A stretch of 64,000 nucleotides of DNA from the NCBI GenBank assembly GCA_016930635.1, contig JAFGGI010000019.1:9929-73928 (forward strand), read 5' to 3'. The notes beneath the pieces were generated by a model, which ran no database searches, was not told the origin of the DNA, and saw nothing but the letters and a program-made list of their open reading frames with translations. Origin of the DNA: Sedimentisphaerales bacterium (lineage in GTDB: Bacteria > Planctomycetota > Phycisphaerae > Sedimentisphaerales > UBA12454). Made by a program: the position numbers and the translations under genes. Positions 9,889 to 64,000 of the stretch are shown here, in pieces; the stretch's first letter is position 1; each line of letters opens with the position of its first letter.

Positions 9889-10320
9889 TTAACTTTCCGG
9901 ATTTTGTTTTAAGCTTGTTATCATTTTTTCTGCCGCCATAGTAGTTGGGCAGACACATTCAATACCTATTGCTTTGCAGAAAGACTCTTTATCGGGATCA
10001 ATAATTCTGACAAATACTTTTGGGACATTGAATCTGTTTTTAGCTATCTGGGCAGCCATGATGTTCACATTTTCATCATGGGTTGCACCAATTACGACAT
10101 CGGCCTTATCAATTTTTGCTTGCTTAAGAACGCCAAGCTCAGTTGCATCACCTTCTATTCTGAACCCGCTGAACTGATCCGGAGTTAATGCATCAAAAGC
10201 AGTTGTGCTGATATCTACCACGACAATGCTGTGCCCTTCATTGCTTAGTTTATTTGCAAGTAATGAACCGAGCCTGCCGCATCCAATTACAACAATATAT
10301 AAATTATGATTCGAAGTCAT
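9889..10320 (-). CDS. TrkA-N (RCK N-domain only) protein
   Basis: Rossmann-type RCK_N sequence VVIGCGRLGSLLANKL. 143 aa with no C-domain. Confidence 0.75.
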   Translation of the reverse strand: MTSNHNLYIVVIGCGRLGSLLANKLSNEGHSIVVVDISTTAFDALTPDQFSGFRIEGDATELGVLKQAKIDKADVVIGATHDENVNIMAAQIAKNRFNVPKVFVRIIDPDKESFCKAIGIECVCPTTMAAEKMITSLKQNPES

Positions 10321-58421: not shown

Positions 58422-59999
58422 TCATTTAAGCAACTTACGTCCGGTTACCAGTGAAAGCATCTCAGCCTTCAACAGTACTGCCCCTATTGTATATAATATC
58501 ACTGCTGTAACAACTGCCGCTGCTAACTGTACGATTCGCGGCAAAGAATGTGCTGAATTCATTACAAAAAGCGAAACAGCAAACATTACCAGGGTAATAA
58601 TCAAAGTCTTTATAAATTCAACAACCACGCCGTCAAATATTTTTCTACCGAGTTTACCTGCCAGACTTTTCAACAGTATCACAACCTGCAGATAGGAACA
58701 AAACGCCGTTGACAGTGCCAGGCCGGCAGCACCCAGAGGCCAAATAAGAATAAGATTTAAAACAACATTGATCACTACCGCAATAAATGCGCTTTGAGCA
58801 GGCTTTTTTGATTCGTGCAGTGAGTAAAATGCTCTCGTACATATCTGCTGCATAAAAAAACCCGCCAGGCCGATGGAATAAAATGTTAATATAAAGGCTG
58901 TAGAGGTTGTATCTGCTGAACTGAATTTACCTCTCTCAAAAATTAAACTTACCAGGGGTTGACGTACCAGAATCAGACCGGCCGTTGCCGGCAGAGCTAC
59001 AAACATTGCGCCCTTAATCCCTTTGGCTATAGTATTACAAAGAGCATCTATGTTATTTTTTGCAGCATCCGAACTCATCACCGGAAAAATAGCTGTCGCA
59101 AGACTTATTCCAAGTACTCCAAGAGGAAACTGATACAGCCTTTGTGAATAAAAAAGCTGTGAGACCGCACCTTCCCACATCGGATACTGTATTTCCCTGC
59201 CAAACCATCCGAATGCCGCCCCTTTCTGGGCTGAACCAGAAAACCACGCCGCTATCGAAACATCCGCTAATGTATTTATCTGTGTCACTGTCAGTCCGAA
59301 GATCATCGGGGCCATCAATAATATCATCTTTTGGAATTCTTCCGTTTTTACCTGCCAGGAAGGTCTTATCAAAACCCCATGCATTCTCAACGGTATGAAT
59401 TGTACAGCCAGTTGCACAATTCCTGCCACTAAAACTATACAAGCTACAAAATATAACTGGCTTTGTGGTTTCATCGATAAAACCCAGCCGCTGAAAAACA
59501 GCGAACCTATTATAAATATGTTTAAAATTAAGGGGGCAACAGCAGGCATTGCAAAGTGTTTATGGGCATTGAGCAGTCCTGCTGTTATTGCCACAAGACA
59601 TATCAATATCATATAAGGCAGCATCAGGCCGCTAAGCGATAACTTCATCGCTGTAGCCGGCAGCGGCGAGAAAAAAGAGTACCATCCCCAGATAACAGCC
59701 TCCCCTACCAGTACAATACAGGCCAGGATAACAAACACTACTGTAAAAGTTGTCGACGCCAGTACATCTGCTGACTTTCGGTCAATCTCAAGCTGTCGAC
59801 TGTATATGGGTATTAATGAACTCGATGCCGCCCCCTCGCCAAATAATCTTCTTGCCAGATTAGGTATCATAAAAGCGATAACCCATCCATCCATCAGCCC
59901 GGTGGCACCGAAGAAAAACGCAAAAGCCATATCCCGGCACATACCAAGTACCCGGCTTACAATCGTAAGAACAACAAGTTGTCTAAATCCCTTGAACAT
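58422..59999 (-). CDS. murJ: lipid II flippase MurJ
   Basis: N-terminal VSRVLGMCRDMAFAFFFGATGLMDGWVIAFMIPNLARRLFGEGA. 14-TM MOP family pattern. Confidence 0.9.
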   Translation of the reverse strand: MFKGFRQLVVLTIVSRVLGMCRDMAFAFFFGATGLMDGWVIAFMIPNLARRLFGEGAASSSLIPIYSRQLEIDRKSADVLASTTFTVVFVILACIVLVGEAVIWGWYSFFSPLPATAMKLSLSGLMLPYMILICLVAITAGLLNAHKHFAMPAVAPLILNIFIIGSLFFSGWVLSMKPQSQLYFVACIVLVAGIVQLAVQFIPLRMHGVLIRPSWQVKTEEFQKMILLMAPMIFGLTVTQINTLADVSIAAWFSGSAQKGAAFGWFGREIQYPMWEGAVSQLFYSQRLYQFPLGVLGISLATAIFPVMSSDAAKNNIDALCNTIAKGIKGAMFVALPATAGLILVRQPLVSLIFERGKFSSADTTSTAFILTFYSIGLAGFFMQQICTRAFYSLHESKKPAQSAFIAVVINVVLNLILIWPLGAAGLALSTAFCSYLQVVILLKSLAGKLGRKIFDGVVVEFIKTLIITLVMFAVSLFVMNSAHSLPRIVQLAAAVVTAVILYTIGAVLLKAEMLSLVTGRKLLK

Positions 60000-60042: not shown

Positions 60043-60798
60043 TCAACCATTAAACTTCTTCTGTCCCGCAACCGCTAAAACAAACGCAAAAACCTTTTGG
60101 GCCCCTGCCTCTTTTAGAGCTCTGGCACATTCATTTAATGTCGCTCCGGTTGTCTTAATATCATCAAAAAGACAGATAGTCTTATCCTTAAAATCGTGAT
60201 TTTTGCGGACGGCAAAGGCTCCTTTGACATTTTTTCTTCTCGCATACGGACTCAGACCAGCCTGTTCGCCGGTATAGCGGGTTCGAACAAGGTCTGTATT
60301 GAACGCGGCACTGCCAAAATCCAGCCTTTTAGCAATAAGTGCAGATTGATTGAATCCCCTTTTAAATCTTCTCCGCCAGTGCATCGGCACCGGCACAACA
60401 TAATCTATATTATCATTAAAATTCGCTCGCTCGATTGCATCCTGTCCGATACTTACCAGAGGTCTGAGCAGTTCAGTTCGGTCGGACAGTTTGAATTTAA
60501 TAATAAGATTTCTCAGTGCCCCCCGATATATACCAAGACAACTTATCGAATCAAAGTGAAACTCTTCCTGGTTGCATTGAGCACAGCCATTGGGCAGTCG
60601 GCCAAAAACACTCATCTCCCTGCCGCAGCGCAGACAGTGTGAATCAACAATACAAAAACTTAATTCCTGCCAGCAATCGGCGCAAAAATGCTTGTCCTCT
60701 TCACAAATATTAGTACCGCACAGCCGGCAGTAATCCTGCCAGGCAACCTGTCGCAAATTCCTGATTAAATTTCCAGTTGAGGTCAAAATCCTTTTCAC
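60043..60798 (-). CDS. comF: ComF-family phosphoribosyltransferase protein
   Basis: N-terminal Cys4 zinc-finger pairs. C-terminal PRTase motif ICLFDDIKTTGATL. Confidence 0.85.
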   Translation of the reverse strand: MKRILTSTGNLIRNLRQVAWQDYCRLCGTNICEEDKHFCADCWQELSFCIVDSHCLRCGREMSVFGRLPNGCAQCNQEEFHFDSISCLGIYRGALRNLIIKFKLSDRTELLRPLVSIGQDAIERANFNDNIDYVVPVPMHWRRRFKRGFNQSALIAKRLDFGSAAFNTDLVRTRYTGEQAGLSPYARRKNVKGAFAVRKNHDFKDKTICLFDDIKTTGATLNECARALKEAGAQKVFAFVLAVAGQKKFNG

Positions 60799-60893: not shown

Positions 60894-60923
60894 TAAAAAA
60901 CAATGAGGAAAAATAAAGAATAT

Positions 60924-61700
60924 TCAGAATGGTATCTCTTTGCTGAATCTGCCTATCTTCATATCCGGCATTCTGACGTCATAGCTGTTCTTTTCCGCAC
61001 CTGCTTTATTTACATGGCCATCACCATACAAAATATTCGCTTTCTCCCTGTGTCTGAAATGCACATATTGGCCTCCTGTTTTTTCAACATAGTGCCATTC
61101 TTCAATCATTGGGCTGGTCGGACTGGCAGGAGACTGGAAAGTATTTACCTGCGCACTGTCTGTAAAAATAACTACATTACTCACGCCGCCATTATAACTG
61201 TCAAAGTCCACGACTTTTTTATGGCTCGAGTTAACTAAATCAACGAATAACTTGCTGTTAGCTCCATATGTCATCCATTTACTGCTGTATTTTGGTTTAT
61301 ATCTGCCGTCGCCATAAGGAAATGCCGGACATATCTCAACTGAATCGTACTGTTCTATATATGGGTACAGCCTGGCACGTTCCCTAAACAACTGACGCTT
61401 ACCTTCCGGAAGAGAAAAACTGCTGCCCGGCTCAAAACCAAAATACCATAATACTCCCAGCTGCCCGGCATCATCAAAAGCGTATTCGGCCAGAGGGAAA
61501 ACTTTTCGGTCATGGTCTTCAAGATACATCATGAATGCCAGACCAAACTGACCCAGATTTGAAGAGCACATCACCATCTTAGCTTGTTGTCGTGCACTGG
61601 CCATTACCGGGACAAAAATCGAAACCAGAAGTGCCATTATAGAAATCACAACTAAAATCTCTACCAGCGTAAAACCTTTATTTGTATTGTCCTTCAGCAT
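60924..61700 (-). CDS. prepilin-type N-terminal cleavage/methylation protein with H-X9-DG (DUF1559) domain
   Basis: KGFTLVEILVVISIMALL prepilin motif. C-terminal HREKANILYGDGH (H-X9-DG). Start set at internal ATG 61700, 1 nt after the upstream stop. Confidence 0.85.
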   Translation of the reverse strand: MLKDNTNKGFTLVEILVVISIMALLVSIFVPVMASARQQAKMVMCSSNLGQFGLAFMMYLEDHDRKVFPLAEYAFDDAGQLGVLWYFGFEPGSSFSLPEGKRQLFRERARLYPYIEQYDSVEICPAFPYGDGRYKPKYSSKWMTYGANSKLFVDLVNSSHKKVVDFDSYNGGVSNVVIFTDSAQVNTFQSPASPTSPMIEEWHYVEKTGGQYVHFRHREKANILYGDGHVNKAGAEKNSYDVRMPDMKIGRFSKEIPF

Positions 61701-61701
61701 A

Positions 61702-62865
61702 CTAATACCATCTCGCTGTTTGGCCCCATTGTTTTGCAAGTACTGCAAAATCTTTTAAATCGACAATTCCATCCCTGTTGATATCACCTCTGATATACTC
61801 ACCCTGCAGTAAATAATCTTCAGTCATCAGCATAATATCATAGTAATCGACGATGCCGTCTCCATCCAGATCCGCAGACCAATTGCTCATAGATTCAACC
61901 GCAAATGTCTGCAGCTCATAATCTCCATAGCCTGGAGGTATCATGCCCGAGTCAAATTCGCTTTTTCCATAATACATAACACCGTTGATAATATCAGCAG
62001 CAATCCCGCAAAAACGCCATTGAGGTTTTGGGAAACCATACGGATTGGCGTATATGTCGCCGTCTATTTCGATAACATTAAAATCGTTCGGTTCATTTGT
62101 CGGTATAATCTTAGCAACCCCGACATAACTGCCTATATAAATGTTATAATCACTGTCGATAACTATTGAATCCGACCCGGCCAGAACCACATCATTCACT
62201 ATAATCTCCGGAACAACTGTAAAATTACTATCCTGCACAAATGTATCTATTTGTCCTCTGCTTATTCTGTGGATATTCACATTGCCCAGACCGCTGCCGT
62301 CGTACATCGGCTTAAAATCAGCCAGGTAAAGATTATCAGCAGCGTCAAAACCTATCGCTCCGGAATTCCTATTGGAAACTTGTACCAATTCTGTTTCATT
62401 GCCATCCCCGGCCATCTTCAGCATATACACCGTATTGTTACTCGCAGCATCTACACCGTTGGCAAAAATCTGGTCGGCCCTGAAACGTGAAGCGATCGAA
62501 TAATAGTTTCTGGTAAGATTTATTTTTTCCTCGGCCGTTTGTCCAACAATATCGGCATATATAACCTTACTGGACAAACCTGTCGGCAATATCGCATCAT
62601 TAAAATCGGTGACAAACGCAAAATCAGCAGGGTCCCACGTAAAACCGGCTCCAGCTCCGGCAAAGATAACTATAAAAGCATCCAGCCCCGGCTCATATCT
62701 ATATAAATTCAGTCCGTTGAAAGCATAAAGACTTTCATCGCCGTAACAAAAATCAATCCTTGTAAACCCGCTGCCGCTTACATTATCAGCAGCAGGTGGA
62801 ATTTGCGCCGCCATCGAAGAACTGGTTACTATTAAAAGAACAATTATGAAAATTTTATTTATCAA
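61702..62865 (-). CDS. secreted propeller-like protein with tandem dockerin-like repeats
   Basis: Signal peptide. Recurrent DxxxN(L/I)Y(L/I) strands (DAADNLYLADF, DSDYNIYIGSY). C-terminal DLDGDGIVDYYD...DINRDGIVDLKDFAVLAKQW. Confidence 0.6.
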   Translation of the reverse strand: MINKIFIIVLLIVTSSSMAAQIPPAADNVSGSGFTRIDFCYGDESLYAFNGLNLYRYEPGLDAFIVIFAGAGAGFTWDPADFAFVTDFNDAILPTGLSSKVIYADIVGQTAEEKINLTRNYYSIASRFRADQIFANGVDAASNNTVYMLKMAGDGNETELVQVSNRNSGAIGFDAADNLYLADFKPMYDGSGLGNVNIHRISRGQIDTFVQDSNFTVVPEIIVNDVVLAGSDSIVIDSDYNIYIGSYVGVAKIIPTNEPNDFNVIEIDGDIYANPYGFPKPQWRFCGIAADIINGVMYYGKSEFDSGMIPPGYGDYELQTFAVESMSNWSADLDGDGIVDYYDIMLMTEDYLLQGEYIRGDINRDGIVDLKDFAVLAKQWGQTARWY

Positions 62866-63635
62866 ATTTCCGCTTTCCTTCTTCTTAAAAATACAGCTCC
62901 CGCAAGCATAGCAAATATCGTCGCCGGCTCCGGTACAACATCTGCAAAACCTGCTACATCTGCGATACCACTGTCGTCGGCAATATCAGTGACACGAACA
63001 TACATTATCCAGTCTAAAGGTTCACTCAGCCCTATTGCATTTGATATATCAACCTGTGCTCCGCCGCAGCCGCCGAGAAAATCCGCTTCCACCTCCCCCG
63101 GTAGTCTATTCATATATGGTACATCTGCAGGTGTAGCGTGAAAAAAATTTCCCGCCGATGCCGTGTAGGGATAAAGGGCATCCGCATAAGTATCCGCTAT
63201 TTCATAAAATAAAACTCCATCCTGGCTGACTTCTATTTTGGCAGGTTCAAAAAATGCTCCGGCAATTCTGCCTTCATTTTCATAATCACATGCAAAAAAA
63301 CTGTTTCCAAATACAAGCAGGTCGGTGCCATACTCAACATCTAATGGATTATTCATAACCTGATGGTCAAACGCAATTGTTATCGACCCGCCATTGCCCA
63401 GGCTGACTACATCAGTTTCTTTATAAGGAGCCGACGTTATTGATATCGGCCAGGTGTATCCTTCATAGCTGTCCTCGGCGGGCGGTGCACCGAGAACAAC
63501 TGAAGGATCATTATAATTTGGCTCAGCCCCGAAGCCCTGGCTGAAGTTCACAACTGAATCGGCATAAGGTGTGGCTTTTGATATCATACAACACATAAAC
63601 ATAACCATCAAAAAAACAACTGCCTGACATCTCAT
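62862..63635 (-). CDS. PEP-CTERM-anchored secreted protein
   Basis: Signal peptide. C-terminal VPEPATIFAMLAGAVFLRRRK (PEP-CTERM sorting signal). AGGAGG SD. Confidence 0.8.
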   Translation of the reverse strand: MRCQAVVFLMVMFMCCMISKATPYADSVVNFSQGFGAEPNYNDPSVVLGAPPAEDSYEGYTWPISITSAPYKETDVVSLGNGGSITIAFDHQVMNNPLDVEYGTDLLVFGNSFFACDYENEGRIAGAFFEPAKIEVSQDGVLFYEIADTYADALYPYTASAGNFFHATPADVPYMNRLPGEVEADFLGGCGGAQVDISNAIGLSEPLDWIMYVRVTDIADDSGIADVAGFADVVPEPATIFAMLAGAVFLRRRKAEI

Positions 63636-63685
63636 CTTTTCATTCCTCCTAAAGCTGAACCAGGTAAATATAATTAAAAAACAAT

Positions 63686-63720
63686 AAAAAAAACCGCCGT
63701 TCCCGCAAAAGGAACGACGG
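63686..63720 (-). terminator. intrinsic terminator (riboswitch expression platform)
   Basis: On the minus-strand RNA, CCGUCGUUCC/GGAACGGCGG stem (one G-U) followed by U8. On the plus strand the same position would be a C-A mismatch. Confidence 0.75.
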
Positions 63721-63761
63721 CTTTAATCTTCCACAAATAACACCCATACAAGGTATATTCG

Positions 63762-63961
63762 CTGGTGTTCCTTACGCGAGAACTCTCAACAAACTACTGA
63801 TTACAGACAGGTTTTCTGACTTGCGTCTCGACGAAAGAACCCTTCCCATTCAAAAAGAACAGTGGGACAATTTCTCTCGGCCTTTTCGATACAACTCGAA
63901 ACAACGCTTACAGCGGCGCGACCGCCACGGATTTTCACCGTGTTCCCTTTTCTGCAACCAG
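63762..63961 (-). ncRNA. cobalamin (B12) riboswitch
   Basis: The minus strand reads AAGGGAACACGGTGAAAATCCGTGGCGGTCGCGCCGCTGTAAGC ... GTCCCACTG...ATGGGAAGGG ... GCAAGTCAGAAAACCTGTC (B12-box-like). Possible P1 CTGGT/ACCAG. Confidence 0.85.
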
Positions 63962-63991
63962 ATATAATTTTTTCAAAGAACAATTTGTAAA
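63962..63991 (-). promoter_or_regulatory. sigma-70-type promoter for the riboswitch transcript
   Basis: The minus strand reads TTTACA-18 nt-TTATAT immediately upstream of the riboswitch 5' end. Confidence 0.45.
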
Positions 63992-64000
63992 ATAACAACT

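Follow-up and report, generated by a model that had tools for sequence, protein, structure and literature searches.

A cobalamin riboswitch in the genome of a Sedimentisphaerales bacterium (Planctomycetota; Phycisphaerae; Sedimentisphaerales; UBA12454) stands ahead of three genes, here called g1, g2 and g3, which probably form a cassette for the capture of corrinoids at the cell surface that is switched off by vitamin B12 (B12) and made when B12 is scarce. B12 is a shared and scarce cofactor, and what is known so far of its capture at the surface comes mainly from gut Bacteroidota (BtuG, BtuH and BtuJ). The locus suggests that an order of sediment Planctomycetota has, throughout the lineage, a surface capture cassette repressed by B12, and the genome's single B12 riboswitch would be devoted to this cassette rather than to a transporter.

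The DNA analysed, called the window in the following, comprises 64,000 nucleotides (nt) and covers positions 9,929–73,928 of the forward strand of contig JAFGGI010000019.1 (assembly GCA_016930635.1; contig C32 in our numbering). The locus lies at window positions 60924–63991 and was studied together with its flanks; riboswitch and all three genes are on the minus strand. The genome, of sediment metagenome origin, has a size of 2.45 Mb in 64 contigs and is 96% complete. For comparison 41 genomes of relatives, from 8 families of one order, were surveyed for B12 riboswitches; 33 riboswitch loci were checked for the first downstream gene (0–400 nt), and 12 loci were extended 10 kb downstream.

The riboswitch and its terminator

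Between the promoter and the start of g1 the following elements are found (window positions):

63964–63991, minus strand: sigma-70-like promoter TTTACA-N18-TTATAT, with a predicted transcription start near 63957 at the aptamer 5' end
63789–63992, minus strand: cobalamin riboswitch aptamer RF00174, 77.9 bits (gathering threshold 31.5), E = 1.6e-18
63762–63775, minus strand: post-aptamer segment UCUCGCGUAAGGAAC, which could pair with the 5' arm of the terminator (RNAfold) and is kept in sequence in relatives
63682–63724, minus strand: intrinsic terminator with a 15-bp GC-rich stem, a loop of 5, a U8 tail and a free energy (dG) of about −23 kcal/mol
63643–63648, minus strand: ribosome-binding site AGGAGG of g1, followed by the ATG at 63635

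An earlier note on this DNA had read a minus-strand cobalamin riboswitch from its core strings and had asked for a covariance-model check. This check was run and bears the reading out: the RF00174 model is matched end to end (positions 1–189) in a high-posterior cmscan alignment, and the sequence contains each of the quoted core strings, together with the GTCCCACTG...GGGAAGG element and the B12-box-like AGTCAGAAAACCTGTC. It also contains the promoter (63991–63964) and the AGGAGG-ATG start that the note had described. The riboswitch is the only one for B12 in the genome, and nearly every genome among the 41 relatives likewise has exactly one. Because the score is far over the threshold, because there is no second copy in the genome and because the first gene after the riboswitch encodes a PEP-CTERM protein, as g1 does, in 29 of the 33 loci checked, the placement is not due to chance. 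The promoter is by itself weak evidence, since such matches are only 1.6-fold over shuffles (16 found versus 10 ± 3 expected). An open reading frame for 65 amino acids (aa) inside the riboswitch (window 63801–63998, minus strand) is spurious.

The terminator has the U8 tail given in the earlier note, its stem being 15 bp rather than 10 bp. In about 10 relatives the stem GCCGYCGUUCC...GGAACGGCGG is conserved nearly base for base (dG −22 to −30 kcal/mol), which argues for a conserved OFF switch acting by transcription termination. RNAfold finds for the 5' arm of the terminator alternative GGAAC-containing partners within and just after the aptamer, and the segment UCUCGCGUAAGGAAC is a candidate switching sequence. 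A kissing-loop complementarity of 6 bp and of the L5-L13 type, by which the post-aptamer segment might contact the aptamer, was searched for and not found.

The cassette proteins and their conservation

The genes of the cassette are, in the order of transcription:

62862–63635, minus strand: g1, 257 aa, signal peptide, BtuH-like domain and PEP-CTERM signal, predicted surface corrinoid binder
61702–62865, minus strand: g2, 387 aa, TTG start, signal peptide, six-bladed beta-propeller of the NHL/SGL type and C-terminal dockerin/EF-hand Ca-binding tail
60924–61700, minus strand: g3, 258 aa, type-IV-pilin-like DUF1559 protein with H-X9-DG motif, third member of the cassette

Domain searches agree with the products named in the earlier note, a PEP-CTERM protein (TIGR02595), a dockerin-tailed propeller (PF00404 together with the propeller fold) and an H-X9-DG prepilin-like protein (TIGR04294). 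The genes are packed as tightly as described there, with a gap of 1 nt between g2 and g3; in the string TTGA the TTG start of g2 overlaps the stop of g1 by 2 nt, where the note had counted 4 nt. This spacing suggests translational coupling.

The candidate for the B12 binder is g1. In a computational structure comparison its fold is that of the B12-binding domain at the C-terminus of BtuH from Bacteroides thetaiotaomicron (BtuH1/BtuH2; 7BIZ). PDB searches with the g1 sequence, both as single sequence and as profile, revealed no relatives, and the link to BtuH is therefore a structural one. The earlier note had held that none of the three products looks like a protein known to be regulated by B12. 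This does not apply to g1, since BtuH is itself under the control of B12 riboswitches in Bacteroides. The PEP-CTERM signal (23.4 bits, cutoff 16), the signal peptide and the two exosortase (EpsH) genes of the genome predict a location at the surface, which would be reached by a mechanism unlike the lipidation of BtuH. When the profile of the g1 family was compared with 1.8 billion representatives, 2753 matches were obtained, mostly PEP-CTERM proteins. Neither PEP-CTERM nor the g1 fold is confined to Planctomycetota: both are found in further phyla, Verrucomicrobiota among them, and the cassette is thus not built from Planctomycetota-specific parts, as had been supposed.

In some relatives the first gene of the cassette encodes a PEP-CTERM protein of the DUF4465/BtuJ type with a conserved NTPAY HI-loop. 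A member of this family from the Phycisphaerae (Mucisphaera) reportedly binds B12 in experiments. More generally, DUF4465/BtuJ proteins are experimentally proven B12 binders (PMC13398666). However, g1 and its close homologs do not match DUF4465 (PF14717) even at an E-value of 1, no DUF4465 was found in the whole genome, and the top Foldseek/VIA matches of g1 do not include DUF4465 structures (9FCT, 9HMU and others). As judged from the structural models, g1 is nearer in fold to BtuH than to the DUF4465 structures. In the relatives L050, L052 and L053 the cassette encodes two different proteins that resemble binders: the PEP-CTERM protein with DUF4465 comes first, and a g1-related dockerin-tailed protein is the second.

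It had been suggested in the earlier note that the propeller could be the binder, by analogy with BtuG. This was not borne out. Instead of the seven blades looked for, g2 has six, of the NHL/SGL type; neither a B12-related fold nor a Pfam propeller family was found for it, and BtuG is absent from its top 50 Foldseek/VIA matches, where a low rank is no proof of absent similarity. As an analogue of BtuG g2 was therefore rejected, and it is predicted to be an accessory surface protein. Its dockerin is of type I (PF00404, 26.2 versus 22.9); a cohesin partner was looked for in the genome and not found. A scan of genome contigs with g2 revealed no relatives, and its close homologs come from metagenome-assembled genomes of Phycisphaerae/Planctomycetes. 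For g3, an N-methyl prepilin motif (PF07963, 30.5 versus 21.2), DUF1559 (PF07596, 24.3 versus 23.3) and, weakly, H-X9-DG (TIGR04294, 19.5 versus 19) were recognised; a B12-related fold was not found for g3 either. On the opposite strand of g3 an open reading frame (window 60903–61238, plus strand) shows 51% protein identity to one in the locus L017 of a relative, most likely a by-product of the conservation of the g3 DNA.

The recurrence of the gene order in relatives, a check also proposed in the earlier note, is evident beyond the first gene. After it the 12 extended loci carry a variable second surface protein, which can be a propeller, either with dockerin or of the PQQ type, or else a g1-like protein with a dockerin tail, then in 11 of 12 a DUF1559 prepilin-like protein, and often ComF. 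Full-length homologs of g2 were found in 3 relative genomes of the same family and the same order; in these RF00174 is in the same position and the order is riboswitch-g1-g2-g3-ComF, followed by MurJ or a HEAT protein. A classical cob or btu gene under the control of a B12 riboswitch was not found in this clade. The note had hoped for a functional handle on DUF1559: one DUF1559 subfamily is indeed co-conserved in the cassette, while the function of DUF1559 is not revealed by this.

Downstream of the cassette two further genes are found:

60043–60798, minus strand: ComF/GntX phosphoribosyltransferase, 126 nt after g3, no terminator found between
58422–59999, minus strand: MurJ lipid II flippase, next after ComF/GntX

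The ComF/GntX gene is possibly co-transcribed with the cassette. In relatives ComF/GntX lies downstream of the cassette in 7 of 12 loci and MurJ in 3 of 4. On the other side, past the window edge (about 64034–64754; L001 1746–2465, minus strand), a protein of 239 aa without Pfam or NCBIfam family is encoded, which has an N-terminal coiled coil and a C-terminal transmembrane anchor. Its gene ends about 40 nt before the riboswitch and is conserved directly upstream of the B12 riboswitch in about 15 relatives (38–92% identity).

Proposed function and alternatives

The genome encodes 8 proteins with B12-binding domains, and the organism thus uses B12. In the 96%-complete genome neither the MetH activation domain (PF02965) nor MetE (PF01717) was found, so that no methionine synthase is detected; searches of the genome for a CobA/PduO-type adenosyltransferase and for CobT found neither. 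Contig C23 carries one TonB-dependent receptor and one importer composed of FecCD permease, ABC ATPase and periplasmic binding protein (PBP) (L020 1794–4268 and 15261–17966, minus strand), which are candidates for B12 or siderophore uptake.

From these data the following mechanism can be proposed. A corrinoid, probably adenosylcobalamin, would bind to the aptamer and favour the terminator, and downstream transcription would stop. When B12 is scarce the terminator would be bypassed and the cassette of extracytoplasmic proteins made. The g1 protein, probably sorted by exosortase and then fixed to the outer surface or within the surrounding extracellular polymer, would catch B12 and hand it to an outer-membrane transporter, for which the TonB-dependent receptor and the FecCD/ABC/PBP importer on contig C23 are candidates. 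Capture or handover may be assisted by g2, with its Ca-binding dockerin tail, and by the pseudopilin g3. A more elaborate version, which is quite unlikely, is a pilus-like relay in which g1 catches B12 and g2 together with g3 as DUF1559 minor pseudopilin mediates Ca-dependent docking and handover to the outer-membrane transporter. If true, a specific DUF1559 subfamily would have a role in B12 delivery, and Planctomycetota and Bacteroidota would share the strategy of a surface relay with unrelated apparatus for anchoring and delivery.

Several observations weigh against capture for import by g1. Binding of B12 by g1 is deduced from its BtuH-like fold, and the likeness is one at fold level; BtuH itself contacts B12 via His476, Gln333, Tyr510 and Trp577 and has a Ca/Na site formed by Glu406, Glu584, Asp522, Asn399 and Ser582. 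Among the 2753 matches of the g1 family the domain scan recognised no BtuH, and when profile hidden Markov models of the g1 family and of the DUF4465 subfamily were compared, only the PEP-CTERM tail aligned. Anchoring via PEP-CTERM is poorly characterised in Planctomycetota. The transporter genes on contig C23 score below the B12-specific NCBIfam cutoffs, being recognised only generically as TonB, FecCD and PBP, and no riboswitch precedes them. RNAfold did not single out the actual antiterminator, which is likewise a deduction, and in metatranscriptomes from the same sediment study next to none of the stretch's sequence words are present.

Of the other explanations, the one that only g1 is related to B12, g2, g3 and ComF being co-transcribed unrelated neighbours, is unlikely but should be taken seriously: the second gene differs among relatives and a B12-related fold was found for neither g2 nor g3. 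Retention of the DUF1559 protein in nearly all of the extended loci, across families, and the tight spacing of the genes speak for a common role. It could also be that the cassette sequesters or stores corrinoids outside the cell, starving competitors or serving as a reserve in the biofilm matrix, without feeding import. PEP-CTERM proteins are described as often tied to the exopolysaccharide matrix (PMC1569441), and the cassette lacks a riboswitch-controlled transporter. Control by B12 scarcity, however, suits acquisition better, and the surface binders of Bacteroides clearly supply import via BtuB (PMC10404256, PMC8941943); this explanation is quite unlikely.

That the cassette does not bind B12 at all, and that the riboswitch ties surface remodelling, adhesion or other B12-linked physiology to these genes, is very unlikely. 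It would fit with the binding by g1 being only predicted and with the clade's riboswitches regulating no classical cob or btu gene. These three explanations are weaker than B12-repressed surface capture, for which the order-wide linkage of riboswitch and cassette and the presence of DUF4465/BtuJ in the same slot speak; the capture device proposed in the earlier note is broadly borne out, with g1 instead of the propeller as candidate binder. Hardly credible is a riboswitch that is an ON switch or non-functional, because a strong terminator, conserved in sequence, directly follows a high-scoring aptamer in relatives and because riboswitches of the RF00174 type ahead of uptake genes are OFF switches.

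Comparison with known systems

Riboswitch-controlled capture of B12 at the surface is already known; the novel elements are the anchoring via PEP-CTERM and the BtuH-type domain in Planctomycetota. A literature search found no PEP-CTERM protein described earlier as B12 binder. The locus offers a testable function for this PEP-CTERM family and an experimental handle on one DUF1559 subfamily and on dockerin-tailed propellers outside cellulosomes.

BtuH, a lipoprotein from Bacteroidota, carries PKD/Ig domains at its N-terminus, whereas g1, from Planctomycetota, has a cleavable signal peptide and no PKD domain, its TIGR02595 tail and the two EpsH of the genome being those of the PEP-CTERM/exosortase system. 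Further near counterparts are the H-domain of BtuG1 (8BLW chain B) and the seven-bladed propeller of BtuG2 (PMC10404256), from which g2 differs by its six blades. BtuG has a lipid anchor; g2 has a dockerin/EF-hand tail and is not known to form a complex with a TonB-dependent receptor. In Bacteroides, BtuJ, BtuH and BtuG relay B12 to BtuB (PMC13616437), and the cassette is proposed to be the functional counterpart of this relay with a different anchoring system; DUF4465/BtuJ itself is the first gene in some relatives' cassettes and absent from g1 and its close homologs. With the btuB/btuFCD regulon of Escherichia coli the locus would share the logic of an RF00174 aptamer that keeps uptake functions repressed as long as B12 is plentiful. 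There the riboswitch acts on the transporter, whereas here it would act on surface binders and their accessory proteins.

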